Positions 6,976 through 61,450 of a stretch of DNA of 64,000 bases are shown piece after piece. The position numbers and the translations under genes were made by a program. Position 1 is the stretch's first letter. Every line of letters starts with the position of its first letter. Location of the stretch: positions 2,903 through 66,902 of the forward strand of contig DAOUEJ010000204.1 of the NCBI GenBank assembly GCA_034430615.1, read 5' to 3'. Under the pieces are notes generated by a model that did not search any database, was not told the origin of the DNA, and saw only the letters and a list, made by a program, of their open reading frames with translations. The DNA comes from Anaerolineales bacterium. GTDB lineage: Bacteria; Chloroflexota; Anaerolineae; Anaerolineales; E44-bin32.

Positions 6976-8916
6976 GTGGCATTACACCACATCACCATCC
7001 AACCTGGGGGTATCGCGCTCGAGGTACCGACCGGGACGCTCGTTTCCGAAGCAGCGCAGACGGCCGGCCTCGAGATCTCCCAGCCATGCGGCGGCCAGGG
7101 ACGCTGCGGCCGCTGTGCGGTGCAAGTGGATGGTGGAATCCGCCGCCGATCGACGATCCGCCTTTCCACCGATGACCTTGCTTCCGGCTGGGCACTCGCC
7201 TGCCAGGCGGTGATTGAGGGCGATGCCAGCATCACGATCCCCGAACAGGAACGCGTTGAACGCCGCCTGGTGACTGAGCAGACGGCTCGCAAGGTCGAGT
7301 TGCCCTTTCACTATGATCCGTTGGAACTGCAGCCGCTGCTCGCTTTACAGGTCAAGCTCGAGCCTCCCACCATCGAAGATTATCGTGACGACCTTACCCG
7401 CCTGGAAGACGCCCTGGCCGGCGCCGGTCATAGCCCAGCTCAGGTCCCGCTCACCATCCTGAGGGAGCTGGGATCCGTGTTGCGGGGCAGCGACTGGTCA
7501 CCCTATGTACTGCTGGAGCGCTCGAGTCGCCCAAGTGAAGCGGTGCGGGTTCTGCAGGTTAGCGCCGATCCGATCGATCCGCTAGGTATTGCGCTGGATA
7601 TCGGGACGACCACCGTCACGGCCTACCTGGTGGACCTGGTCAGCGGTCAGGTTCGTGCCTCTGCCGCAGAATACAACGCTCAAATTGCGCGCGGGGAGGA
7701 TGTAATCTCACGCATTATCTACGCCAGCAAGGGGAAGGGTCTTCTCGAACTGGGTGAGTTGGTGCGTGAAACTTTCTCCATGCTGCTGGAACGCCTCCAG
7801 CGCCGTACGGGTGTTTCACCTGGATCGATCCATAAGCTCACCATCTCGGGGAACACGACGATGATCCATCTCTTCCTGGGTATCCCCCCGGAAAATATCC
7901 GTCTCACCCCCTATATCCCGGCAGTTAACCAGCCCCCGCCCTATCTAGCGGCGGACCTGGGACTGCCCATCCACCCCCTGGCCTCGGTTGATTGTCTGCC
8001 CGGCGTGGCTTCTTACGTTGGCGCTGATATCAGCGCCGGGGTACTGGCCTCCGGTCTCGCTTCGAGCGAAGCACTGACCCTCTTCATCGACGTCGGAACC
8101 AATGGAGAGATCGTGCTCGGGACGAAAGACTGGATGCTAACCTGTGCCTGTTCGGCCGGACCAGCATTCGAAGGGGCCGGGGTGGTGGATGGTATGCGGG
8201 CAACAGAGGGTGCGATCGAAGAGTTATGGATTCACTCTACGACCTTCGAGCCCACCTACCGTGTCATCGGCAGTGGTAAGCCGCGCGGCCTGTGCGGCTC
8301 TGGCTTGATCTCCGCCCTGGCTGAGTTGTTCGTGACCGGCGTGATCGATCGGGGTGGCAGCGTCAAGCTCGACCTGGACACACCTCGCGTCCGGATGGGC
8401 GGACACGGGCCCGAATATGTCATCGCCTGGGCAGATGAGACCGAAACCGGCCACGACCTGGCCCTGACCAAGGTCGACGTCGATAACCTGATGCGAGCGA
8501 AAGCCGCCATCTACGCCGGGTACAGCGTCCTTGCCAGCGGGGTTGGCGTCGATCTGGCCGATGTCGAGCAGGTACTGGTGGGCGGATCGTTCGGAAAATA
8601 CATCAACGTGGAAAACGCCATCAAGATCGGGCTGCTTCCTGATCTGCCCTGGGACCGATTCCACTTTCTGGGAAATACATCCGTGATGGGTGCGTATATG
8701 GCTCTGGCTTCAAGCATTGCACGGGAGCAGGTGCGCAAAGTGGCGGAGAGCATGACCTATGTCGAGCTGTCTGCTGATAATTCATTTTTCGATGCTTTTA
8801 CGGCTGCGCTCTTCCTACCCCATACTGATATCACGCTCTTCCCGAGTATGGCGGAAATCTGGGAGCGAGAGAACGAGGGAGCAGCCGTGGACGAAGAAGC
8901 GGGGCCGGCAGAATGA
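6976..8916 (+). CDS. acsV: Corrinoid activation/regeneration protein (RACo/AcsV): 2Fe-2S ferredoxin domain plus ASKHA ATPase
   Basis: 646 aa, GTG start. N-terminal plant-type ferredoxin motif CGGQGRCGRCAV. DIGTTTV and GxSxG/ASKHA-like stretches. Conserved acs-cluster position. Confidence 0.85.
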   Translation: MALHHITIQPGGIALEVPTGTLVSEAAQTAGLEISQPCGGQGRCGRCAVQVDGGIRRRSTIRLSTDDLASGWALACQAVIEGDASITIPEQERVERRLVTEQTARKVELPFHYDPLELQPLLALQVKLEPPTIEDYRDDLTRLEDALAGAGHSPAQVPLTILRELGSVLRGSDWSPYVLLERSSRPSEAVRVLQVSADPIDPLGIALDIGTTTVTAYLVDLVSGQVRASAAEYNAQIARGEDVISRIIYASKGKGLLELGELVRETFSMLLERLQRRTGVSPGSIHKLTISGNTTMIHLFLGIPPENIRLTPYIPAVNQPPPYLAADLGLPIHPLASVDCLPGVASYVGADISAGVLASGLASSEALTLFIDVGTNGEIVLGTKDWMLTCACSAGPAFEGAGVVDGMRATEGAIEELWIHSTTFEPTYRVIGSGKPRGLCGSGLISALAELFVTGVIDRGGSVKLDLDTPRVRMGGHGPEYVIAWADETETGHDLALTKVDVDNLMRAKAAIYAGYSVLASGVGVDLADVEQVLVGGSFGKYINVENAIKIGLLPDLPWDRFHFLGNTSVMGAYMALASSIAREQVRKVAESMTYVELSADNSFFDAFTAALFLPHTDITLFPSMAEIWERENEGAAVDEEAGPAE

Positions 8917-8935: not shown

Positions 8936-9712
8936 TTGGTGACGATGACGAAGACGATTGCCCTTGCGGGAAAAGGCGGAACTGGAAAGACCACGGTTGC
9001 CGCGCTCTTGATCCAAGCCTTGTTGAGGCGTGTGCCTGGGCCGCTGCTTGCGATTGACGCTGACCCGGCCACGAACCTGCACCTGGCGCTTGGCCTCCCC
9101 ATGCCAACCACCGTCGGTGATGTGCGCGAAACGATGGCTGTTGAGGCGCAGAACCAGCAGCTTGGCGTCACCATAAGCCGGCACGATTATCTGACGCATG
9201 AATTACAGATGGCGTTGGAAGAAGGTGACCAGGTTGACCTGCTCGCCATGGGCCGCCCGGAAGGCCAGGGCTGCTACTGCGCTGCCAACCATTTGCTGCG
9301 CACGATCATGGATGACATGGGCCGGCACTATCCTTACGTCATCATCGATAACGAAGCCGGGATGGAGCACATAAGCCGCCGGACCACGCGCGATGTGGAC
9401 CTGCTGCTGATCGTGAGCGACCCGACCTTACGCGGATTGATAGCGGCCGGGAGCATCCTCGAAATGTCGTATGACATCGGTGTCAATGTCCATCAGCGCT
9501 GGCTGATCCTGAACCGGGTGGTTGGAGATCTCGTGCCACCGCTCCAGGCAGCTGTTGACGACCTAGAGATTGAGATCGGGGCGATCATCCCGGCCGATTC
9601 CCGCGTAAATGAACTTGATGCGCTTGGCGAACCACTCATCAAACTGAACGGCGATTCACCAGCCCTGCGAGCTATCCAGGAACTGACCGACTCGATCCTG
9701 CGATCGCTATAG
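8936..9712 (+). CDS. cooC: CooC/AcsF-type Ni-insertion ATPase for CODH/ACS (MinD/ParA fold)
   Basis: Deviant Walker A GKGGTGKTT, CxC metal motif (GQGCYCAAN), 258 aa, lies inside the acs operon. Confidence 0.85.
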   Translation: MVTMTKTIALAGKGGTGKTTVAALLIQALLRRVPGPLLAIDADPATNLHLALGLPMPTTVGDVRETMAVEAQNQQLGVTISRHDYLTHELQMALEEGDQVDLLAMGRPEGQGCYCAANHLLRTIMDDMGRHYPYVIIDNEAGMEHISRRTTRDVDLLLIVSDPTLRGLIAAGSILEMSYDIGVNVHQRWLILNRVVGDLVPPLQAAVDDLEIEIGAIIPADSRVNELDALGEPLIKLNGDSPALRAIQELTDSILRSL

Positions 9713-50660: not shown

Positions 50661-51815
50661 ATGCACTTCGTTTCAGCGGAAACCATGGGGGCTGAAGTCC
50701 CTCTAAAAGCAGTTGCGAGGGCAAGGGCCGTCGATGCGCTGCGCGGTTTGATCATCGTCTTCATGGCGCTTGATCACGCCAATTATTTCATCGCCCATCA
50801 GCACAGCAGCGGAGAGTACTGGGGGGGCCCATTCCCAGTCTACAAAGACCCGCTCACCTTCCTGACACGCTTCGTGACCCACTTCAGCGCACCCGGGTTC
50901 TTCCTCTTGATGGGCATAGGTATGGCGCTGTTCAACTATAAACGCCGTACTCAAGGTTGGTCGCCATGGGCTATCTGGGGCCATTTCCTGATCCGCGGGC
51001 TCATCCTTGCCGGTCTCCAGTTGTTGATCGTGAACCGGGCCTGGGAATGGGGACCTGTGCCCTTTCCGAGCGTGTATATCGGCGTGCTCATCGCGCTTGG
51101 TGGGACGATGATCCTAGGTGGATTGCTGGTGGATCTACCAAATCTAGCGTTGGCGTTGATCAGCTTGACTCTGTTCGTCGGGAGTGAGGTTTTCCAACCG
51201 GCGCCGGAGATGTGGGGGTTGATAACCAACGATCTCCCGAACCTGCTCCTGGCCCGGCCGGGTGGGACCGGGGAACTCTGGTCGAATTACCCCATCCTAC
51301 CCTGGCTCGAGCTGGTCGTTTTTGGTCTCCTGCTGGGTTCCTGGCTGTGGAAGGATTCAAAGCAGGCTTTCCACCGCATCAGGATCCTGGGCGGGATCTT
51401 CTTGGTGGCATTCCTGATCCTGCGTCTGCTGGATGGGTTTGGCAATATCCGCCCGCGGGCGGGCAACACATGGATCGACTTCTTCAACCTGGTGAAATAC
51501 CCACCCAGCATGACTTTCACGCTCCTGACAACGGGTGTCAACCTGTTCCTGCTCTCTGGGCTGGATTGGCTCGAGCAACGCAAGGCGAGCTGGCTGGGGG
51601 TGTTGGAGGTCTTCGGCCGGGCGCCGCTCTTCGTATATGTCCTGCATCTATTCCTATATATGCTCCTGGGACGCATCTTCACGCCCAGCGGCTCGTCGCT
51701 GCTGGTTATGTATGCATTATGGCTCATTGGGCTGGTGATTCTGTATCCCCTCGCAGCCTGGTATGGTCAATGGAAGGTGCGCCAACCTGCCTCCTCGCCG
51801 GCACACTACTTCTAG
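50661..51815 (+). CDS. DUF1624 / heparan-alpha-glucosaminide N-acetyltransferase-like polytopic membrane protein
   Basis: RAVDALRGLIIVFMALDHANYF N-terminal signature and about 10 TMs. Confidence 0.65.
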   Translation: MHFVSAETMGAEVPLKAVARARAVDALRGLIIVFMALDHANYFIAHQHSSGEYWGGPFPVYKDPLTFLTRFVTHFSAPGFFLLMGIGMALFNYKRRTQGWSPWAIWGHFLIRGLILAGLQLLIVNRAWEWGPVPFPSVYIGVLIALGGTMILGGLLVDLPNLALALISLTLFVGSEVFQPAPEMWGLITNDLPNLLLARPGGTGELWSNYPILPWLELVVFGLLLGSWLWKDSKQAFHRIRILGGIFLVAFLILRLLDGFGNIRPRAGNTWIDFFNLVKYPPSMTFTLLTTGVNLFLLSGLDWLEQRKASWLGVLEVFGRAPLFVYVLHLFLYMLLGRIFTPSGSSLLVMYALWLIGLVILYPLAAWYGQWKVRQPASSPAHYF

Positions 51816-51978: not shown

Positions 51979-52014
51979 AGGGGGCGATCCTCCACCCGAG
52001 TTCTGACACCCACC

Positions 52015-52152
52015 TTAATGTCATTCCCAGGCCGTCAAGCCGAGGAATACCCATGATATTGGCCGGATGGGCTCTAAAACCCTCCTACACTTTGCCTCTT
52101 TTTGTAATGTCGTGGGTATCCATCGTCGCACAGCTCCTCGGGATGACATTAA
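52015..52152. repeat. MITE-like element, clustered copy C2 (138 nt)
   Basis: ttaatgtcattcccaggccgtcaagccgaggaatacccatgat ... gggtatccatcgtcgcacagctcctcgggatgacattaa. Terminal 17 nt are inverted repeats (15/17). Confidence 0.85.
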
Positions 52153-52192
52153 AAGGTAAGGGCAATTCTACGAGAGGTTTTATGCCCATCTG

Positions 52193-52330
52193 TTAATGTC
52201 ATTCCGAAGCCGCAAGGGCGAGGAATACCCATGATGCTTCGCCGGAGCAGACCAGCCGTGTCCCTCTACTTCGTCTCTACTTATGTCGTTTCGTGTTTCC
52301 CTCGTCGCAGGGCTCCCCCAGGATGACTAT
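52193..52330. repeat. MITE-like element, clustered copy C3 (138 nt)
   Basis: ttaatgtcattccgaagccgcaagggcgaggaatacccatgatg ... gtgtttccctcgtcgcagggctcccccaggatgactat. Confidence 0.8.
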
Positions 52331-52335
52331 AGAAA

Positions 52336-52360
52336 CGGGGCTGCGTAGAATGCAGCCCCG
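52336..52360 (-). terminator. Probable intrinsic terminator of the ABC-2 operon
   Basis: 9-bp stem cggggctgc / gcagccccg with a 7-nt loop, 23 nt after the stop at 52383. Followed on the minus strand by TTTCT. Confidence 0.55.
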
Positions 52361-52382
52361 CATGACGTACCCGCTTCTTGCT

Positions 52383-53480
52383 TCAACGATCCATCTGCCG
52401 TATGCGCCAGATGCTCAACCCGAGAAAAACGACTGCCGGGACAAGCATGCGCAGCAGATCGATGACCAGCCGTCCCCAGTCGATGCTGGCGGTCATGCTC
52501 ATGCGGACCATCTCGGAAAGTGAAACGGTGGGTAGCAAACCAAAAACCGTAGCCAACCACGCCGGAAGGTTGCTTGCGAACTGCCCGACAAAAACTGGCA
52601 GCAGCAGAACCACCAGCAGGATTCCAAGCCACAAGTTCATCGACGCCGGCTCATCCGAGAACGTCCCGATCACTAACCCCAGCACAACCGCAAAAGCTGA
52701 TCCAGCCAGGACTGCGATCACGATCACAGACCAGTGCACGATCAACGCGGCAGCCATCAAGGAGAAGACAGCTGCCGCTGCCAGGCAATAGGTCAGGCCG
52801 GCCAGCGACTTGCCGACCGCGATGTGCGTCATTCTGGCCGGTGAGACCAGCAGTGTTGAAAACGTCCCGGTTTGTTTCTCCTCCTGGATCAAGCCCGGGG
52901 TCATGACGATGCCGATGATGAAGAGCGCGTTCACCAAGCCTGTTGCGACCATCACCATCTGTCCCGTCGACTCGAGGGTTGGGTAGACAGCGTTTCCAGC
53001 ATAGCTGATGATTACGGTCACACCCCACGACTTGCTCAGCTGACGCTCCACGGATTCAAACGTATCACGGACGACTTCCGCATCGATCCAGTAGGGATAG
53101 TAGCCCGGGAGCTCAAGAGTTCCATCCACGTCACCGGACGAAGGCAGTTCATCTGGCAGCAGCACGCCCAGGGCTGGAGAGAAGGATTGGCCGAGCTCGA
53201 TTTCCAACGCGGTCTTGTTCTCAAGCGCGAAGGTTGGGAGCTCCGATGCCCGGCGCAGCTCACGAACGAGTTCGCGCCCGGACGACCCGGCGAAAGCAAT
53301 GCGTGGCTGGTCGGCCTGTCCGACCAGCATGCGCATTGCGAAGGCTCCCACCATCAGGGTTGCTACACCGATCATGATTCCGATCATCACCCGGTTCTTG
53401 AGCGAGTCGAGGATGTCCTTCCAGGCAATCGCCAGGATGATGCGCAGCCCGCTGCCGGAAGTCCTTTGTGTTTCTGCCAT
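52383..53480 (-). CDS. ABC-2 type transporter permease
   Basis: 365 aa. N-terminal TM, extracytoplasmic domain, 5 C-terminal TMs. Starts 12 nt after the upstream permease. Confidence 0.8.
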   Translation of the reverse strand: MAETQRTSGSGLRIILAIAWKDILDSLKNRVMIGIMIGVATLMVGAFAMRMLVGQADQPRIAFAGSSGRELVRELRRASELPTFALENKTALEIELGQSFSPALGVLLPDELPSSGDVDGTLELPGYYPYWIDAEVVRDTFESVERQLSKSWGVTVIISYAGNAVYPTLESTGQMVMVATGLVNALFIIGIVMTPGLIQEEKQTGTFSTLLVSPARMTHIAVGKSLAGLTYCLAAAAVFSLMAAALIVHWSVIVIAVLAGSAFAVVLGLVIGTFSDEPASMNLWLGILLVVLLLPVFVGQFASNLPAWLATVFGLLPTVSLSEMVRMSMTASIDWGRLVIDLLRMLVPAVVFLGLSIWRIRQMDR

Positions 53481-53492
53481 GATCGACCTCCC

Positions 53493-54602
53493 TCAGCGAT
53501 CCCGGCGCCGGATCAGACTGGCCGTAAAGCCCAGCACCAACGCCGTGCCGACAAGGATGATGGCCAGGTTGCCCAGGATAACGGCGGCCGGGATCTGGGC
53601 TGCGGCGCTGGCCCGGATGAGCATGCTCATGGCGACCGTCGGAACCCATGTCATCAGGCCGACCAGCCACCCTGGAAGCAGATCGTCGAGCACAACCAGA
53701 AACGGCGGCAGCATCAGCGGCAGGACAGCAGCCCAGGCCCAGCCCATGAGCTGCTGACGGGTGTGGAACACAGTGCCAAGGAGCAGGCCTACGCTGATCG
53801 TAAAGATGCATCCAGCAAGGATTGCCAGCCCGGCTACTCCCCAGTGCTGAATCACGGGTCCGTAAATCAACAGCGAGGGGATGCCGATAAGCAGGCTATA
53901 GAACAGCCCGGTCAGCGCCTTAGCAACGACGACCATCCAGCTCGAGGCAGGAGAGACCATCAGCGCGTCGAGCGTGCGGGCGGATTTTTCCTCCATCATC
54001 AGGTTCGGAATGAAGGAAATGCCCAGCATGCACAGCGCAAAGATCGTCCCCAGCGAGGCTGTAAAGGCCGTACCATCGTTGTCCACCGCCGGGGAGATGC
54101 GGTTATCGCCAACTTCGATACGAACCGCCAAACCGGTTTCATTATAGATTGCAGTCTCTGCCTGCTGGACCAGTTCCTGTGCCTCGTCCCGCGAGACCCA
54201 CCGCACGATATATCCCTGCAGTTCAGGTGTCTCTCCGGCTGCAACCCGGGCGTCGAAATCAGCCGGAATCACCAGGCCGAGTTCGGGCTCGCTCCCGTCG
54301 CCAATCCGACGCTGAAGCGCCGGTAGGGATAAACTGCTCCGTACTTCGATCTCGCTGCTGTACTGCAGGTCAGCCAGTGATTCAGCCGGACCGGCCTCAT
54401 ACAGAAAAACACGCGCCGGATCGGTGCCGCTGATCAGCGGCATGAAACGGTACAGGGCGATCATCATGACCACCGTCACGATAGCAGTCAATGTGTTCTT
54501 GTTGCGGATGCCCTCAAGAAGGTCCTTGGCGGTAATCGCCATGATAACCCGGAGCTTGTCCCGCAACGGCATACCTCGGTGTGCGTTCATCGTTGTTTCC
54601 AT
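53493..54602 (-). CDS. ABC-2 type transporter permease
   Basis: Start moved to METTMNAHRG (ATG 54602, GGAGG 8 nt upstream). Same topology as its paralogue. Confidence 0.8.
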   Translation of the reverse strand: METTMNAHRGMPLRDKLRVIMAITAKDLLEGIRNKNTLTAIVTVVMMIALYRFMPLISGTDPARVFLYEAGPAESLADLQYSSEIEVRSSLSLPALQRRIGDGSEPELGLVIPADFDARVAAGETPELQGYIVRWVSRDEAQELVQQAETAIYNETGLAVRIEVGDNRISPAVDNDGTAFTASLGTIFALCMLGISFIPNLMMEEKSARTLDALMVSPASSWMVVVAKALTGLFYSLLIGIPSLLIYGPVIQHWGVAGLAILAGCIFTISVGLLLGTVFHTRQQLMGWAWAAVLPLMLPPFLVVLDDLLPGWLVGLMTWVPTVAMSMLIRASAAAQIPAAVILGNLAIILVGTALVLGFTASLIRRRDR

Positions 54603-54633
54603 GGTACGTACCTCCATTCTATTGGTCAACCGG

Positions 54634-55386
54634 TCAGCCTTGTTCTTCGGTAACCGGTGTCGGCTGGTAAAGTTCGTATCCGGTCTTCTTGAGGAAGACA
54701 TCCTCCAGTGTCGCCTCGCCGCCCAGTTCAGCCTTCAACTCAGATGGCGATGCTAGGGCGACGATCACACCCTTGTTAATAATCACTACCCGGCTGCACA
54801 GCCGATCGGCTTCTTCCATGTAGTGCGTGGTCAGGAAAATGGTGACATCCTCATCCGCAAGTTTGGCGACCAGCGAGCGGATATCGCGTGCCACACCTGG
54901 ATCGAGACCACGTGTGGGTTCATCGAGGAAGAGCACACTCGGTTGGTGCAGCAGCGCTCGAGCGATCATCAAGCGCTGACGCATGCCGTTCGAATATTTG
55001 CTCGTTCGCTCGCGGGCGCGGTCGGTAAGGCCGACCCGCTCCAACACCTGGCCGACACGCTCCTGCGGTATGCCGTATAGGCGGGCGTAGAATTTCAAGT
55101 TGTCAAGCGCGCTGAAGCGCGTGTAAAGGTTCTGCTGCTCGAATACCACCCCGATCTGCGGCTTGAGCCGCTCTCGGTCCTCGACGATGTCACAGCCCAT
55201 CACCCGTGCAGTCCCCGAGGTTGGGCGGAGTTGGCCGGTAAGCATGCGCAGCGTCGTGGTCTTGCCGGCTCCGTTCGGCCCGAGAAAGCCGAAGATTTCA
55301 CCCGCTTCCACATGGAATGAAATTTGATCGACGGCGGTCAGTCCGTTATAGGTGCGGGTCAGGTCGAAAGCTTCGATACTCTTCAT
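54634..55386 (-). CDS. ABC transporter ATP-binding protein (canonical)
   Basis: Trimmed to MKSIEAFDLTRTY (ATG 55386, aaggag RBS). Walker A GPNGAGKTT, signature YSNGMRQR, Walker B LFLDEPTRGLD, H-loop TTHYM. Confidence 0.9.
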   Translation of the reverse strand: MKSIEAFDLTRTYNGLTAVDQISFHVEAGEIFGFLGPNGAGKTTTLRMLTGQLRPTSGTARVMGCDIVEDRERLKPQIGVVFEQQNLYTRFSALDNLKFYARLYGIPQERVGQVLERVGLTDRARERTSKYSNGMRQRLMIARALLHQPSVLFLDEPTRGLDPGVARDIRSLVAKLADEDVTIFLTTHYMEEADRLCSRVVIINKGVIVALASPSELKAELGGEATLEDVFLKKTGYELYQPTPVTEEQG

Positions 55387-55497
55387 CGCAAACTCCTTTA
55401 TCAAGCGGCCAGGTCTCATCGATTGTGTTGCGTGTGCTCGGCCGACACTCGCTCCGAAAACCATCTACAGGCTACGTAATCAAGAAAGCGGCTGCAA

Positions 55498-55524
55498 CAA
55501 AAAACCGCCGAACGGCGGTTTTTC
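55498..55524 (-). terminator. Intrinsic terminator after the NBD-LytTR gene
   Basis: Minus strand reads ccgccg-ttcg-gcgg-type GC stem (55505-55518) followed by TTTTTT (55504-55499), 50 nt after the stop at 55574. Confidence 0.75.
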
Positions 55525-55573
55525 GGGGTTGAATGGCGCAGAGAATGCCTATTTTCGAGAATTGATTTAAGGA

Positions 55574-56569
55574 TCAGTAATCGAGAAGCTCGCGCAGCTC
55601 GGCTGCCGCGGTCTTGCTGAGTGGGATTAACGTCCCTGCGTCATCGTCCAACCGCAGGCTGAAGCTATCGCGTGTGAAGGGGATCACTTCGGTCACGTGC
55701 TGCAGGTTGACCAGGTAGCTGCGATGGGCGCGAAAGAACCCCCGCCGCAACAACCTTCCTTCCAATTCGCTGAGTGTGTATTGCGTGTTGAGCAAATCGC
55801 CATCCGTGGTCTGCAACGCTGCCTTCCCATCTTCAGCCGTTGCGAAGAGCACCTCGGCCGGGTTCACCAAGGTGATGCTCCCCCCGCCTCGAACAGGTAT
55901 CTTGAACGGCATGTCATGCTCGTCGCCCGCAGCGGCCTGATCTACCTTGACCAGGTGGCCCTCGCTCATGCGGTATAGGGCATGGCATAGCTGTGGGAGG
56001 TGGGCATCGTCATCGGCCAGGATAAGTATCGCCTTCCTGGCCTCGGCCAGCTCCCGTATCAGATGCCCGATCAACGTAATAGAGGCCTGGTCACAACGTG
56101 CAAAGGGGTCCCTTAAGATCAGGATCGGGGGATCGTGCAGGATGGCTCGACCTAGGGCCAGGCGGCGGGCGAGTCCCGTCGGCAGGTCGCTTGCCCGGAC
56201 ATCGCCCTGGTCGTCCAATCCAACTTCATGCAAGACCTGCCCCACCCGTTTACGGTCCAAGCCATATAAGCGAGCGTGGAAAGCCAGGTTGGAAGCTGCG
56301 GTCTTGGATTGATATAGGCCATCTTCGCTGAAGAGCACCCCGATCGTCCGGCTGATAGAGTCACGATCCCCGGCGGGATCCGAGGCGTGGAGACGGATGC
56401 TTCCGGCTGTTGGTCTTGACTGCCCCAAAAGCAGGCGGAAAAGCTCATCCACGCCGCTCCCGCTAGGACCAAAAACGCCGGCGATCTCCCCGGACCTGAC
56501 TCTCAGGGATTCAAGTTCGAGTACTGTAATCCCCTGCACAACCTTGTGCAGCTGTTTGATCTCGATCAT
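55574..56569 (-). CDS. Degenerate ABC nucleotide-binding domain fused to a LytTR DNA-binding domain (putative transcription factor)
   Basis: Trimmed to MIEIKQLHKV (ATG 56569). NBD-like fold but Walker A GPSGSGVD, signature LPTGL, Walker B ILILRD. C-terminal FFRAHRSYLVNLQHVTEVIPF...IPLSKTAAAELRELL is a classical LytTR domain. Confidence 0.8.
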   Translation of the reverse strand: MIEIKQLHKVVQGITVLELESLRVRSGEIAGVFGPSGSGVDELFRLLLGQSRPTAGSIRLHASDPAGDRDSISRTIGVLFSEDGLYQSKTAASNLAFHARLYGLDRKRVGQVLHEVGLDDQGDVRASDLPTGLARRLALGRAILHDPPILILRDPFARCDQASITLIGHLIRELAEARKAILILADDDAHLPQLCHALYRMSEGHLVKVDQAAAGDEHDMPFKIPVRGGGSITLVNPAEVLFATAEDGKAALQTTDGDLLNTQYTLSELEGRLLRRGFFRAHRSYLVNLQHVTEVIPFTRDSFSLRLDDDAGTLIPLSKTAAAELRELLDY

Positions 56570-56609
56570 GGATTCAAATACCCGTGATTGCCCATACCAG
56601 CCCATATTA

Positions 56610-56637
56610 GCATAATCCCGTCTGTCAGCGATTATGC
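56610..56637. promoter_or_regulatory. Inverted repeat GCATAATC-N12-GATTATGC in the divergent promoter region
   Basis: Perfect 8-bp arms, located between the NBD-LytTR gene (start 56569) and the M50-like gene (start 56700). Adjacent direct repeat gcccata x2. Confidence 0.35.
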
Positions 56638-56699
56638 AGCTTGCGGAAATGTAAAGGCTTGAAGATACTCGGTACAGTTCGCTGCTCAGGTGGCTCGAT

Positions 56700-57440
56700 A
56701 TGAAGAAACCGGCCGTCTACACACCAGAGCAACCCGGCCACACACTAACCCACCTCTGGGATACCCCGGTCGTCGTCGTTGGCCGTACGTGGCTTCCGCT
56801 GGTCGAGCTGGCTAGTTGGATGTTCTTCTCCTGGTGGTCCTCCAGACGTGATCCGGACCGCAAACCGGGCGTGAGCCTGGGTTTGGGGGCTGTTCACACT
56901 CTGATGGTCCTGGGTTCGGAATGGTGCCACAACCTGGCCCACGTCGCCGCGGCGCGCATGGTCGCTCGACCGATGGATGCCCTGCGCATTACCTGGGGCA
57001 TGCCGCTGTGCGTCTATTACGAGCTTGAAGATGAACGCGTCACACCCCGCCAGCACATTGCGCGGGCGTTGGGAGGTCCACTCTTTAACTTTGCCGCCTC
57101 GCTCACGCTTGGCCGAATACGCTCCAGAACAAAGAAGAATACTCCAGCCCGTGAAATCGTGGATACAGCACTCGGCGCGAATCTCATCATCCTCGGCGCG
57201 GGCCTGCTTCCCTACCCTGGCCTTGATGGTGGCGTGATATTGAAGTGGAGCCTGGTCGAAGGCGGCTCCAGTACACGGCAAGCCGACGCGATTACTCGTC
57301 AGATGGATGGCGCGGTCGCGGCTGGCTTGGCAGGTGCTGCACTCGGCTTGAGAAAGCGCCGGCCATGGTTGAGCGTGCTGCTTGCAATTCTCAGTGCGCT
57401 TGGCTTTAGCCTAGCACTGAGTCTTGTTCGGGAGTCGTAG
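56700..57440 (+). CDS. Site-2-protease (peptidase M50)-like membrane protein with HNLAH in place of HExxH
   Basis: SEWCHNLAHVAAARM (56928-56942) aligns with the M50 HExxH helix. GLLPYPGLDGGVIL matches the M50 NxxPxxxLDGG motif. 246 aa, about 6 TMs. Confidence 0.55.
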   Translation: MKKPAVYTPEQPGHTLTHLWDTPVVVVGRTWLPLVELASWMFFSWWSSRRDPDRKPGVSLGLGAVHTLMVLGSEWCHNLAHVAAARMVARPMDALRITWGMPLCVYYELEDERVTPRQHIARALGGPLFNFAASLTLGRIRSRTKKNTPAREIVDTALGANLIILGAGLLPYPGLDGGVILKWSLVEGGSSTRQADAITRQMDGAVAAGLAGAALGLRKRRPWLSVLLAILSALGFSLALSLVRES

Positions 57441-57734: not shown

Positions 57735-58610
57735 ATGAGAATGTGGAACTCGTATGCCCAACCGGCCAACGTTGAGCAGGCCTTGCAGGCGCTCAATGAT
57801 GCGCAAGGCCATGCAGCGATCATCGCCGGCGGGACCGATCTCCTGCTCGATATCGACCAGGGCCGCCGACCCGCACCCGACCTGCTGATCGACGTCACCT
57901 GCATCAATGAAATGGGCGAAGTACGGCTTGAAGAGGACCATATCTACCTGGGTGCGGCTGTCACCCACAAGGCGATCACAACCAACCCAATCCTCATGGA
58001 ACACGCTGCCTGCCTGGTGGAAGGCTGTGCGCTGATCGGCGGCCCGCAAGTGCGCAATGTCGCCACGATCGGCGGTAACGTCGCACATGCACTGCCGGCC
58101 GGCGACGGGACGATTGGTCTCCTCGTGCTGGATGCACAGGCGCTTCTTGCCGGCGTGATGGGGCGAACCTGGAAGCCTCTGGCGAAGCTCTTCGCCGGAC
58201 CTGGCGAGACAACCTTTGATCGTTCACAGGAAATCCTGGTCGGGTTCAAACTCCCCTTGCGCGAACCGAACGAGTATTCTGCCTTTCAACGCATCATGCG
58301 ACCACAAGGCGTTGCAATCGCCATCCTGAACATGGCGGTCTGGGTCAAGCTGGCGCCAGCCAGCACGCTCGAATCGGTACGGATCGCGGTAGGCCCCGGT
58401 GGGCCTGTTCCCTTCAGGGCACATGCCACCGAAGCAGCTCTTGCTGACCGCACACCCGACGCAGAGGCGCTGGCGCAAGCCACCAAAGCTTTACTGGGTG
58501 AGATCCAGCTGCGTACGAGCAAACACCGCGCCAGCCTGGCATACCGCCAGCACCTTGCCGGCATCCTGCTCGAGCGCACACTGGGTGCCGCGCTCAGCAA
58601 GCAGGCATAG
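57735..58610 (+). CDS. Xanthine-dehydrogenase-family FAD-binding subunit (CoxM/CutM-like)
   Basis: AIIAGGTDLLLDI, NVATIGGNVAHALPAGD, C-terminal CO-dehydrogenase flavoprotein-like domain. Confidence 0.88.
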   Translation: MRMWNSYAQPANVEQALQALNDAQGHAAIIAGGTDLLLDIDQGRRPAPDLLIDVTCINEMGEVRLEEDHIYLGAAVTHKAITTNPILMEHAACLVEGCALIGGPQVRNVATIGGNVAHALPAGDGTIGLLVLDAQALLAGVMGRTWKPLAKLFAGPGETTFDRSQEILVGFKLPLREPNEYSAFQRIMRPQGVAIAILNMAVWVKLAPASTLESVRIAVGPGGPVPFRAHATEAALADRTPDAEALAQATKALLGEIQLRTSKHRASLAYRQHLAGILLERTLGAALSKQA

Positions 58611-58669
58611 GTGACGATCAACCCAGACCGTTCGATAGGTGCATTTGATGAAGTCAACAAGGCAGGATC

Positions 58670-61450
58670 ATGACCAACGAGCTTAAACTGACCGTCAATG
58701 GTATTGAACGGATAGTCGATGTCGAACCAGGTGCGATGCTTTCCGATGTACTGCGCTACCGGCTTGGATTGACCGGGACGAAGATCGCCTGCGGGGAAGC
58801 CGAATGCGGTTCATGCACGGTTCTTCTGGATGGTCAACCCATCCTCTCCTGCACGCTGCCAGCCATGAAAGCAAATGGAAAGGATGTACTAACGATTGAG
58901 GGGCTAAGAACCAATGGCAGTCTGCATCCACTGCAGGAAGCATTCGTGAAGCATGGCGCGGTCCAGTGCGGTTTCTGTATCCCGGGTCAGATCATGACCG
59001 CCTACGCTCTCCTTGCACAAAATCCAGATCCGACTGAAGAAGATATCCGGCACGCGCTCAAGGACACGCTCTGTCGGTGTGGTGGGTACCCCACCATTAC
59101 TCGGGCTGTTCAAGCTGCTGCGGCTAGCATGCAGCATGGGACACCGGTTGCAGCGCCGGATATCGCTGCGTCAGGTGATTTCCGCGTGATCGGCAAGCCG
59201 GGGATTCGCCCGGATGCACTGCCCAAAGTCGATGGCAGCGCCAAGTTCACCGATGATTATCACTTTCCAGGAATGCTTCACGCTCGCGTGCTGCGCGCCG
59301 GCGTTCCCCATGCAGTCGTAACAAAACTCGATATTACTGCCGCAGCTGACCATCCCGGCGTCAGGGCGGTTCTCACCGCCGCTGACATTCCGGGCGAGAT
59401 CAATCACGGCCTGGTCACACGCGACTGGCCGGCGCTGGTGGGTATCGGCGAGAAAGTGCGTTACGTCGGCGATGCGCTGGCGATCGTCGCCGCCGAAACC
59501 CGGGAACAAGCGACCGATGCGCTGGAGTTGATCACCTTCGAACTCGAGCCGCTTCCGATTGTCAGCAGCCCGATCCAGGCTCACCAACCAAACGCCCCGC
59601 ACGTTCACGCCGGCGGCAACCTGCTGGATGAAATCAAAGTCTCCAAGGGCGACATCGAGGCCGGGATGGCGCAGTCCGAAGTCGTCTTCGAGCAGACCTA
59701 CGAGACGCCGATCATGGAGCATCTCTTCATGGAGCCCGAGTGCAGCATCGCCCGCCCTCTCGAGGACGGCCGCATGGAGATCTACGTCGGTTCGCAAATT
59801 CCCTACGCTGATCGCGAGCAGGTAGCGGACTGCCTCGGGCTTGAACACGAGCAGGTGCACGTAATTGGCACACTGGTCGGTGGTGGGTTCGGCGGTAAAG
59901 AGGATATTGCCGGCCAGATCCATGCTGCGCTGCTCGCCCAGGCGACGGGCCGGCCCGTCAAGCTGCTCTACGATCGGCACGAGAGCTTGCTGACCCACCC
60001 CAAGCGCCACGCAACCCGGATCCGGGTGCGCATCGGCGCCCGGCCGGATGGTGAGCTGGTCGCGGTCGATACTGAACTGTACGGCGACACGGGCGCGTAT
60101 GCTTCCCTTGGCGAACACGTTATGACACGTGCCACCACCCACTCTTCCGGACCCTACATCATCCCCAACGTGCGCGCCGATTGCTTCGCGATGTACACCA
60201 ACAACCCGCCCTCCGGGGCATTTCGCGGATTTGGCGCGCTCCAGGCTGCCTTTGCAATCGAGACGGCGATGGACGAACTCGCCCACCAGATCGGCATGGA
60301 TCCAATCGAGCTGCGAAAGCTGAACGCGCTGCGCGAGAGCTCAACCACCAATACCGGCCAATTTCTTGACCACAGTGTCGGCCTGCTTGAATGCGTCGAT
60401 CGAGTGGAAACCGAGATGCGCCGCCTATCTGCTGGCGAGGATCCATTTACCCCTCAGTCCGTCCCCGGCAGCCCGAGCTTGCGCCGGGCCTGGGGTTTTG
60501 CCGTGGCTTTCAAAAACACCGGACTGGGAGGCGGAGCCCCCGATAAAGCTGGCGCCGAGGTCCAGCTCTATGAAGATGGCACGATCGAAGCCCGCACGTC
60601 ATCGGCCGAAATCGGCCAGGGATTGGTCAGCGTGCTACAGATGATCGCCGCCGAGGAAATGGGGGCCAACCTCGATCAGGTGCGTGTACTGCTTTCGGAC
60701 ACCGATCTTACGCTCGATGGAGGCCCGACGACCGGGTCACGCCAGACCTACGTGAGCGGGAACGCTGTTCTTCACGCCGCCAGCACGCTGCGCCAGGCGA
60801 TGAGCGCAACTCTCTCCGAGCGTTTCGATTGCCCGCCAGAGAAGATACGCTACATCGCTGGGTTGGCGCAGGTAAACGGCCTGGAGGTACCCCTGGGTGA
60901 GGTGGCCAAGCTCATGCGCCAGGAAGGGCGTGAAGCGCACGCCGCGTTTGAATACTGGGCTCCGAAAACCGAACCGCTCGGCAGCGGAGGCGATATGCAT
61001 TTCGCCTTCTCCTTTGCTGCCCAGGCGGCACAGGTCGAAGTCGACCTTGAGACCGGCGAAGTGCGCGTGCCGCGCGTCATCGCCGCCACAGATGTCGGCC
61101 AGACCATCAACCCGATCGGGCTACAGGGACAGATCGAGGGCGGCGTGGTGATGGGCATCGGTCATGTGCTGACCGAGGAGTTCATCCTCGAGAATGGGAT
61201 GGTGATCACCGACCGTATGGCGCGCTATCGCATGCCATCGATTGCACATGCACCGGAAATCATCTCATTCGTGGTCGAACACCCCACCCGGGAAGGACCC
61301 TACGGGGCAAAAGGCGTGGGTGAGATCTCGACCATGCCGACCTTGCCCGCCATCACGAATGGGATCTATCACGCCTGTGGCATCCGCATCCGCCGGCTGC
61401 CCGTGGATCAGGACTGGCTCGCCCTACAGCTCACACCCCGTAAGTCCTGA
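58670..61450 (+). CDS. Xanthine-dehydrogenase-family fused 2x[2Fe-2S] plus molybdopterin-binding subunit (aldehyde-oxidoreductase-like)
   Basis: 926 aa. CGEAECGSCTV and QCGFCIPG/CRCGGY Fe-S motifs, then GGGFGGKE and FRGFG molybdoenzyme motifs. Confidence 0.9.
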   Translation: MTNELKLTVNGIERIVDVEPGAMLSDVLRYRLGLTGTKIACGEAECGSCTVLLDGQPILSCTLPAMKANGKDVLTIEGLRTNGSLHPLQEAFVKHGAVQCGFCIPGQIMTAYALLAQNPDPTEEDIRHALKDTLCRCGGYPTITRAVQAAAASMQHGTPVAAPDIAASGDFRVIGKPGIRPDALPKVDGSAKFTDDYHFPGMLHARVLRAGVPHAVVTKLDITAAADHPGVRAVLTAADIPGEINHGLVTRDWPALVGIGEKVRYVGDALAIVAAETREQATDALELITFELEPLPIVSSPIQAHQPNAPHVHAGGNLLDEIKVSKGDIEAGMAQSEVVFEQTYETPIMEHLFMEPECSIARPLEDGRMEIYVGSQIPYADREQVADCLGLEHEQVHVIGTLVGGGFGGKEDIAGQIHAALLAQATGRPVKLLYDRHESLLTHPKRHATRIRVRIGARPDGELVAVDTELYGDTGAYASLGEHVMTRATTHSSGPYIIPNVRADCFAMYTNNPPSGAFRGFGALQAAFAIETAMDELAHQIGMDPIELRKLNALRESSTTNTGQFLDHSVGLLECVDRVETEMRRLSAGEDPFTPQSVPGSPSLRRAWGFAVAFKNTGLGGGAPDKAGAEVQLYEDGTIEARTSSAEIGQGLVSVLQMIAAEEMGANLDQVRVLLSDTDLTLDGGPTTGSRQTYVSGNAVLHAASTLRQAMSATLSERFDCPPEKIRYIAGLAQVNGLEVPLGEVAKLMRQEGREAHAAFEYWAPKTEPLGSGGDMHFAFSFAAQAAQVEVDLETGEVRVPRVIAATDVGQTINPIGLQGQIEGGVVMGIGHVLTEEFILENGMVITDRMARYRMPSIAHAPEIISFVVEHPTREGPYGAKGVGEISTMPTLPAITNGIYHACGIRIRRLPVDQDWLALQLTPRKS

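Follow-up and report, generated by a model that had tools for sequence, protein, structure and literature searches.

A LytTR regulator carrying a degenerate ABC nucleotide-binding domain, and its predicted operator, beside an ABC-2 exporter operon of an Anaerolineales bacterium

The stretch of DNA analyzed here (hereafter the window) is 64 kb of contig DAOUEJ010000204.1 from the Anaerolineales bacterium assembly GCA_034430615.1. It contains a locus of four head-to-tail minus-strand genes, the first of which encodes a protein with an ABC nucleotide-binding domain (NBD) joined to a LytTR DNA-binding domain. This protein is predicted to regulate the three genes that follow, which encode an ABC-2 type exporter, and is referred to below as the regulator. 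The genes, in window coordinates, are as follows.

55574..56569 (-): regulator gene, 331 aa, with Pfam domains ABC_tran and LytTR
54634..55386 (-): intact DrrA-like ABC ATPase, 250 aa, with the ribosome-binding site AAGGAG in front
53493..54599 (-): ABC-2 permease 1, 368 aa, Pfam ABC2_membrane_3 (E-value: 2.2e-18)
52383..53480 (-): ABC-2 permease 2, 365 aa, Pfam ABC2_membrane_2 and ABC2_membrane_3

A preliminary description of the window, made from the sequence alone, had placed a canonical ABC-2 exporter beside the fusion protein, and the Pfam and NCBIfam matches to an intact NBD and two ABC-2 permeases support that assignment. The neighboring NBD (54634..55386) matches Pfam ABC_tran (E-value: 4e-35) and NCBIfam TIGR01188 (E-value: 4e-84, 282 bits) and, when aligned with the fusion, retains all of the catalytic motifs. 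Permease 2 is a paralogue of permease 1 (~27-30% identity). Orthologues of permease 1 align starting at residue 1; if its start is at 54599, the gap between the NBD and permease 1 genes is ~34 nt, compared to the 12-31 nt first given for the exporter genes. The spacer between the regulator and NBD genes is 187 nt. A scan of 52000-57000 against Rfam gave no match, and hence no known riboswitch or leader in the 5' untranslated region of the exporter operon.

Domain structure and catalytic motifs of the regulator

The regulator has the conserved domains ABC_tran (PF00005, residues 21-156; E-value: 8.4e-19, 69 bits against a cutoff of 25) and LytTR (PF04397, residues 231-329; E-value: 2.3e-20, 73 bits against a cutoff of 22.6). 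An AlphaFold2 model derived from 64 relatives (mean pLDDT, or per-residue confidence, 89.2) shows two well-folded halves, of which the NBD fold is complete, separated by a disordered linker, the only part below 50. The regions are as follows.

Residues 1 to ~210 (nt 55940-56569, -): pseudo-NBD (Pfam, AlphaFold2, Foldseek)
Residues 212-220 (-): disordered linker (AlphaFold2)
Residues 231-329 (nt 55583-55879, -): LytTR domain (Pfam, structure match 3d6w)

The best Foldseek matches of the N-terminal half are whole NBDs (LptB target: TM-score 0.84, rmsd 2.5 A, 226 columns), and the nearest solved LytTR structure to the C-terminal half is 3d6w (E-value: 3.7e-10). As modeled, the regulator consists of a genuine NBD fold and a LytTR domain with a flexible linker between them. 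NCBIfam has no dedicated model for this fusion; its matches are generic NBD families far below their cutoffs, the nearest being the DrrA subfamily (only 93 bits), which is also the nearest for the neighboring NBD. Two-component LytTR systems (AgrA, NatR and LytR type) comprise a receiver domain and a histidine kinase. Neither was found: the regulator has no Response_reg match in Pfam, and the flanking genes checked (encoding an M50-like membrane protein and an acyltransferase) include no kinase.

The pseudo-NBD is 36% identical to the neighboring NBD in alignment and differs from it at each catalytic motif.

A-loop: V11 in the fusion, Tyr in the neighboring NBD
Walker A: GPSGSGVD in the fusion, GPNGAGKT in the neighboring NBD
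Q-loop: FSEDG in the fusion (without Gln), FEQQN in the neighboring NBD
Signature: LPTGLARR in the fusion, YSNGMRQR in the neighboring NBD
Walker B: ILILRD in the fusion (R153-D154), VLFLDE in the neighboring NBD
H-loop: D186 in the fusion, His in the neighboring NBD

Similar losses are found among 120 close relatives (54-66% identity), where an A-loop aromatic residue is present in 1, the Walker B Asp in 3, and the Q-loop Gln, H-loop His and canonical signature in 0. The Walker A Lys is kept by 93/120 and is replaced by Val or Ile in the window and its nearest relatives; its loss is specific to the window's subclade, whereas the other catalytic residues are gone family-wide. In 119 Bacillota-type relatives, the P-loop glycines are also lost. 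Intact Walker A and B motifs occur in only five of 39 diverse full-length representatives (P0145, P0149, P0153, P0179 and P0256), and the H-loop His in none of the 39. On these alignments, the pseudo-NBD is catalytically dead, having lost the residues that would stack, bind and hydrolyze ATP. The preliminary description had read the first ~210 residues as NBD-like with every catalytic element altered, and the last ~100 as LytTR. Profile searches and the predicted monomer structure agree with both domain assignments, and the alterations recur motif by motif in the alignment to the neighboring NBD, with neither the Walker A Lys nor the Walker B Glu present in the window copy.

In a working NBD, the Q-loop, signature-helix and D-loop faces contact the membrane domain and the partner NBD. 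The near-invariant motifs of the pseudo-NBD family (GVLFxEDGLY, GLARRLAFGRAILH and EPFARCD) lie at these former faces, and the Walker A, signature and D-loop faces are conserved while the catalytic residues are not. The large membership with both domains, together with these family-specific invariant motifs, indicates that the family is maintained by selection rather than decaying.

The predicted operator and exporter promoter

The spacer between the regulator and NBD genes contains a pair of direct repeats next to a putative promoter. These elements, and the promoter element of the regulator gene itself, are as follows.

55528..55538 (-): R2, distal repeat, CGCCATTCAAC, 9-bp core CCATTCAAC
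55507..55517 (-): R1, proximal repeat, CGCCGTTCGGC, 9-bp core CCGTTCGGC
55498..55524 (-): hairpin and T-run, GAAAAACCGCCGTTCGGCGGTTTTTTG, overlapping R1
55469..55497 (-): exporter promoter, predicted to be activator-dependent, its position conserved in an ungapped alignment
55492-55497 (-): -35 hexamer TTGCAG, with a 17-nt spacer to the -10
55469-55474 (-): -10 hexamer TAGCCT, its position conserved across 17 loci
56604..56612 (-): extended -10 of the regulator gene, TGCTAATAT, at a conserved position

The 9-bp cores form the arrangement CCATTCAAC, 12 bp, CCGTTCGGC, with R1 lying 21 bp downstream of R2 and ending 9 bp short of TTGCAG, the -35 of the exporter operon. When the window spacer was aligned with 16 orthologous Anaerolineae spacers, anchored on the -35 hexamer, the alignment of the 17 loci was gap-free although flanking sequence was not conserved. 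What is conserved is a set of two to three direct repeats (~C[GA]CC[AG]TTC[AG][AG]C) with a 21-bp period beside the -35, and both promoter hexamers hold their position in all 17 loci. Within the 64 kb, CCRTTCRR-N13-CCRTTCRR is matched exactly only once, at this pair. A position weight matrix (PWM) trained on the other loci, with the window left out, scores the pair at the window operator at 28.9, compared to 14.4 for the next best pair and a background of -25.6 +/- 9.6. The exporter promoter is too weak to be called by a consensus promoter scan and was assigned by cross-locus conservation; a weak, uncalled -35 is as expected of an activator-dependent promoter.

The operators of the LytTR regulatory systems (LRS) of Streptococcus mutans, whose regulators are activators, are 9-bp repeats with a 12-bp spacer located 4-11 bp upstream of the -35, with a consensus near ACCnCTTAn (PMC6193735), and the same activator geometry is stated as canonical in PMC11347149. 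The window pair has the form of a LytTR site (9-bp direct repeats 10-13 bp apart, upstream of a -35), and its repeats and geometry mark it as the predicted LytTR operator of the exporter operon.

The repeats recur in distant relatives. Bacillota-type spacers contain two to four GCTCCATTCAnC repeats, again with a 21-bp period. When ten independent distant loci (~9-15 kb each, both strands) were scanned with the Anaerolineae matrix, the best pair of the whole locus fell within the 100-280-nt spacer after the regulator gene in 6/10, and the spacer pair ranked within the top three in 8/10 (the exceptions being L069 and L074). This placement is far beyond chance, as each spacer is ~1% of the scanned positions. 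L071 has a second, higher-scoring operator-like pair at 9491-9525 (+) (ATGCTCCTTTCACC … ATGCTCCTTTCAAC, 21-bp period), ~3 kb from the regulator and near the contig end, which suggests that the regulon may include a second promoter.

The hairpin that overlaps R1 folds as RNA at -19.9 kcal/mol (z -3.55) and, in the window's lineage, probably serves the regulator gene as its intrinsic terminator. The window R1 forms a perfect palindrome with a T-run behind it; R2 and R3 have no such symmetry. L004, L005, L006 and L016, which belong to the window's clade, have a compensatory C..G to G..C substitution that preserves the stem. In L009, L010, L013, L014 and L015, R1 lacks the palindrome and an A-run comes after it, but both the repeat and its register persist without the hairpin; in Bacillota-type loci, the hairpin is likewise absent and the repeat present. 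Because the repeat and register persist in a clade that lacks the hairpin, the repeat is the ancient feature, and the terminator looks like a lineage-specific second use. The preliminary description had correctly recognized a hairpin and T-run here, reading it as a terminator, but had overlooked that it doubles as the proximal operator repeat. It had also pointed to 55387-55497 and 56570-56699 as places to search for conserved repeats: the predicted operator lies just beside the first of these, at 55507-55538, and in the window no repeats were found upstream of the regulator gene.

The regulator gene appears to be expressed from a promoter of its own. An extended -10 (TGCTAnnAT or CGCTAGAAT) is found at the same position upstream of it in 16 orthologous loci, and a search for autoregulatory LytTR repeats upstream of it found none in the window or in most of the orthologous loci. 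The regulator is thus probably made constitutively, without autoregulation. An alternative start at ATG 56605 was rejected: the conserved extended -10 (56604-56612) overlaps it, and the ATG at 56569 is therefore the right start. L010, L013 and L014 alone have a conserved ACGGCCGTTTCC ~20-45 nt upstream of the regulator's -10 that resembles a single operator half-site and may hint at autoregulation in that clade.

Two further features were observed in this region of other loci. In L013, L014, L065, L068 and L072-L074, an (A/T)-run followed by AATGC occupies the -35 position (for example, ATAATGCGG or ATAATGCC); this arrangement occurs in many loci of both phyla, the window's clade having a T-run and TTGCAG there, and RNA polymerase or the regulator may make a conserved contact with it. 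At least seven Anaerolineae loci (L004 ~7463-7693, L005, L006 ~7156-7362, L016, L009, L010 and L014) have a gene for a small membrane protein (~60-76 aa) between the operator/promoter and the NBD gene, as the first gene of the operon. This protein is rich in small residues (…GMGxGMAL…DNPGxLGVGPAxGxSxGxAIGE…), belongs to no Pfam family and could be an extra subunit or a substrate-related peptide. It was not found in the window by tblastn, where the spacer is only 187 nt, and a small open reading frame called in L071 (6291-6503) is dissimilar to it, overlaps the operator and is probably a spurious call.

Family distribution and linkage to the exporter

The fusion belongs to a family of thousands of members in two phyla, with more than 1,000 in each of two lineages. 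A search for the close family gave 1,613 matches and a search from the fusion of Tenuibacillus multivorans gave 1,289 (E <= 1e-10); in each case, all 120 matches listed carry ABC_tran and LytTR. Full-length fusions, among them that of T. multivorans, were found down to 29% identity (HMMER, all-against-library). Many of the listed matches are from cultured Sporosarcina, Cytobacillus, Oceanobacillus, Virgibacillus, Ornithinibacillus and Jeotgalibacillus. All members are under generic database names only. The JGI name "ABC-2 type transport system ATP-binding protein" is misleading, because such proteins, judged from their motifs, would be unable to work as ATPases. Full-text literature searches, which did not cover the original LytTR-defining paper, found no paper on an ABC_tran-LytTR fusion. 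The preliminary description, which knew of no characterized example, therefore stands on that point, but the architecture itself is common rather than rare. The novelty lies in the reading of the architecture; the sequences were already in databases.

The fusion is closely linked to the exporter. Among 19 close loci from Anaerolineales, Promineifilaceae and Ardenticatenaceae, the order of regulator, NBD and two to four permease paralogues is found in 17-18; of the exceptions, L017 is rearranged and L019 has no partner detectable by tblastn. In all nine distant loci, the fusion adjoins an intact NBD of 282-284 aa and an ABC-2 permease, and in 8/9 it lies just upstream on the same strand. The linkage to an ABC-2 operon that had been raised in the preliminary description as a matter for survey is thus general in both groups. 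In a neighbor-joining tree, the real NBDs form one clade with the pseudo-NBDs outside it, and the sub-trees are congruent. By this topology, the regulator and the real NBD are an old, co-inherited module, and an origin of each pseudo-NBD as a recent duplicate of its neighboring NBD is rejected.

Several observations concern the surroundings of the exporter. In L004, L008, L011 and L012, a single NBD gene is followed by three or four paralogous ABC-2 permease genes, compared to two in the window. Divergent from the regulator gene, 56700-57440 (+) encodes a 246-aa membrane protein with a weak Peptidase_M50 match (E-value: 6.6e-4, below cutoff) and, by eye, HNLAH in place of HExxH; the position of this gene is kept only in the three nearest loci (L001-L003). 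Convergent with the permease genes, 50661-51815 (+) encodes a 384-aa HGSNAT/Acyl_transf_3/OpgC-like membrane acyltransferase that is also found downstream of the permeases in L001 and L003, and a tie to the exporter substrate is possible. Open reading frames of 291 and 926 aa at 57735-61450 (+) adjoin the locus and, by eye, resemble the FAD-binding and fused [2Fe-2S]/molybdopterin subunits of a xanthine/CO-dehydrogenase-family enzyme.

Proposed mechanism, alternatives and known systems

In the model proposed here, to which we assign a probability of roughly 0.55, the regulator is a soluble, kinase-free one-component activator of the adjacent exporter, with the dead pseudo-NBD as its sensor half. 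Two or more regulator molecules would bind the operator repeats via their LytTR domains, and the bound regulator would recruit RNA polymerase, switching on the ATPase and two permeases. Direct control of the exporter operon by the regulator is highly probable from the features of the spacer. Activation rather than repression is probable as well, with somewhat less assurance; it is favored because the repeat length, spacing and distance to the -35 match those of LytTR activators and because the -35 is poor. The pseudo-NBD would be the input domain, most likely via its old NBD contact surfaces, and would either take an NBD slot on the permease pair or pair head-to-tail with the real NBD. That it still meets the transporter is suggested by the near-universal linkage and by the preserved motifs of its former interfaces. 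More tentatively, transporter state or abundance may set the amount of regulator free for DNA, which would form a feedback from transporter to promoter that needs no kinase. A specific form of this idea, somewhat less likely again, is that the dead NBD docks at the permease coupling helices or on the real NBD, such that the conformational cycle or substrate load of the exporter determines the free regulator. If this form is correct, the locus would encode a flux-sensing circuit that is self-contained and needs no kinase, conserved between Chloroflexota and Bacillota, in which a transporter subunit has been turned into the sensor of its own regulator. A predicted operator, promoter and target operon are now supplied for this circuit, and its cultured carriers (Sporosarcina, Oceanobacillus, Cytobacillus and Virgibacillus) are amenable to ordinary genetics.

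A number of points weigh against this model. Evolution is faster in the pseudo-NBD than in the LytTR half (mean identity 52% and 72%, respectively). The regulators of the window and L003 share 63% identity, compared to 90% for the real NBD and 86-92% over the NBD and two permeases, which is unexpected for a surface that fits highly conserved permeases. In L069, the regulator lies downstream of the transporter genes and no operator is detectable. The -35 and -10 of the exporter are putative, assigned from cross-locus conservation. Finally, the closeness of the proximal repeat to the -35 leaves room for repression, and the operator of the LytTR repressor CoxC overlaps its -35 (PMC11347149).

The most substantial alternative, though a rather unlikely one, is that the pseudo-NBD is only an oligomerization or ligand module that never touches the transporter. 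Its homodimer, either constitutive or induced by a nucleotide or other small molecule, would position a pair of LytTR domains at the direct repeats, in the way a phosphorylated receiver does. The best conserved parts of the pseudo-NBD are indeed the faces of the sandwich dimer (Walker A region, signature helix and D-loop PFARCD), most close relatives keep the Walker A Lys, and the five representatives with intact Walker A and B motifs, which are of distant lineages, indicate that nucleotide-dependent dimerization may be ancestral. However, the A-loop aromatic residue is missing in 119/120 close relatives and the Walker B Asp in 117/120, and the whole P-loop is destroyed in the Bacillota-type branch; these losses make nucleotide binding unlikely in most members, including the window copy. 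Such a module would also explain the near-universal linkage to one NBD and permease(s) only by target proximity.

Repression, in which the regulator would block RNA polymerase at the -35 until released by a signal, is improbable. R1 is only 9 bp from the -35, and CoxC is a LytTR repressor with triple direct repeats (PMC11347149), but the window repeats lie entirely upstream of the -35, without overlapping it. The -35 (TTGCAG or AATGCG) is weak, the geometry is that of LytTR activators (PMC6193735, PMC11347149), and the failure of the consensus scan to call the promoter is expected if it depends on an activator. It is very improbable that the direct repeat is a chance by-product of the terminator hairpin and no operator at all. 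Although the palindromic R1 of the window, with its T-run, folds well as RNA and compensatory change preserves the stem in some relatives, five Anaerolineae loci and the Bacillota-type loci keep the repeat in register without a hairpin or T-run, R2 and R3 lack the palindrome, and the PWM recovers the pair in independent loci. Least credible of all is a working exporter ATPase with an incidental DNA-binding tail. The protein does have a full NBD fold and belongs to the same DrrA-like subfamily as its neighbor, but every catalytic element is altered in the window copy and likewise across ~280 relatives, and an intact NBD gene accompanies the fusion in nearly all of the loci surveyed.

The activator model can be compared with several known systems. 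Like the LRS of S. mutans (HdrRM, BrsRM, SMU_433/434 and SMU_1070c/1069c; PMC6193735), the locus has a kinase-free LytTR regulator and 9-bp repeats, 12 bp apart, that lie a few bp upstream of the -35. Several LRS are also co-transcribed with ABC transporter genes, and in both cases a membrane component is proposed to restrain the regulator. LRS regulators, however, are small stand-alone LytTR proteins that are auto-activating and have a dedicated membrane inhibitor, whereas here a pseudo-NBD is fused to the LytTR domain. No co-transcribed membrane inhibitor was found: the regulator gene is monocistronic with its own probable terminator, and the next genes encode the NBD and permeases. The regulator promoter is free of the autoregulatory repeats of an LRS in the window and most orthologous loci, the repeats standing before the transporter operon only.

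Response regulators with a LytTR output domain likewise activate neighboring ABC-2 type exporter operons, an example being NatK-NatR and natAB of Bacillus subtilis (Ogura et al. 2007, cited in PMC3498285). NatR, which is of the LytTR type, carries a receiver domain and depends on a histidine kinase; here, no Response_reg domain was found in the regulator and no kinase among the flanking genes checked. The degenerate sites of heterodimeric ABC exporters also involve an NBD without the catalytic Glu or His and with a non-canonical signature, beside a consensus NBD (PMC7544095). Those degenerate NBDs still bind ATP within the pump, whereas here the A-loop, Walker A Lys/Thr and Walker B Asp are lost as well and a DNA-binding domain is fused. 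CoxC and RcoM are, like the regulator, one-component proteins with a sensor-linker-LytTR arrangement, and their operators are two or three direct repeats spaced by some two turns of the helix (PMC11347149). Their sensors are MHYT or PAS-haem gas sensors rather than an ABC fold, and CoxC represses.

In MalK-MalT of E. coli and in flux sensing by BceAB-BceS of Bacillus, transcription is governed by the state of an ABC transporter, and in the former the NBD itself sequesters the activator. The sensor and regulator in these systems are separate and the NBD is active, whereas here a dead NBD is part of the transcription factor; their permeases are of the FtsX or maltose type, whereas those of the window are of the ABC-2 type (ABC2_membrane_2/_3), and neither an FtsX-type BceB nor a BceS-like kinase was found. 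To our knowledge, few systems have been described in which exporter load is reported to the transcription machinery; those known, such as MalK-MalT and BceAB-BceS, all rely on separate proteins or kinases. The family described here would instead have put an ATPase fold to new use as the input part of a LytTR regulator and would have retained it next to a single exporter over a very long period.

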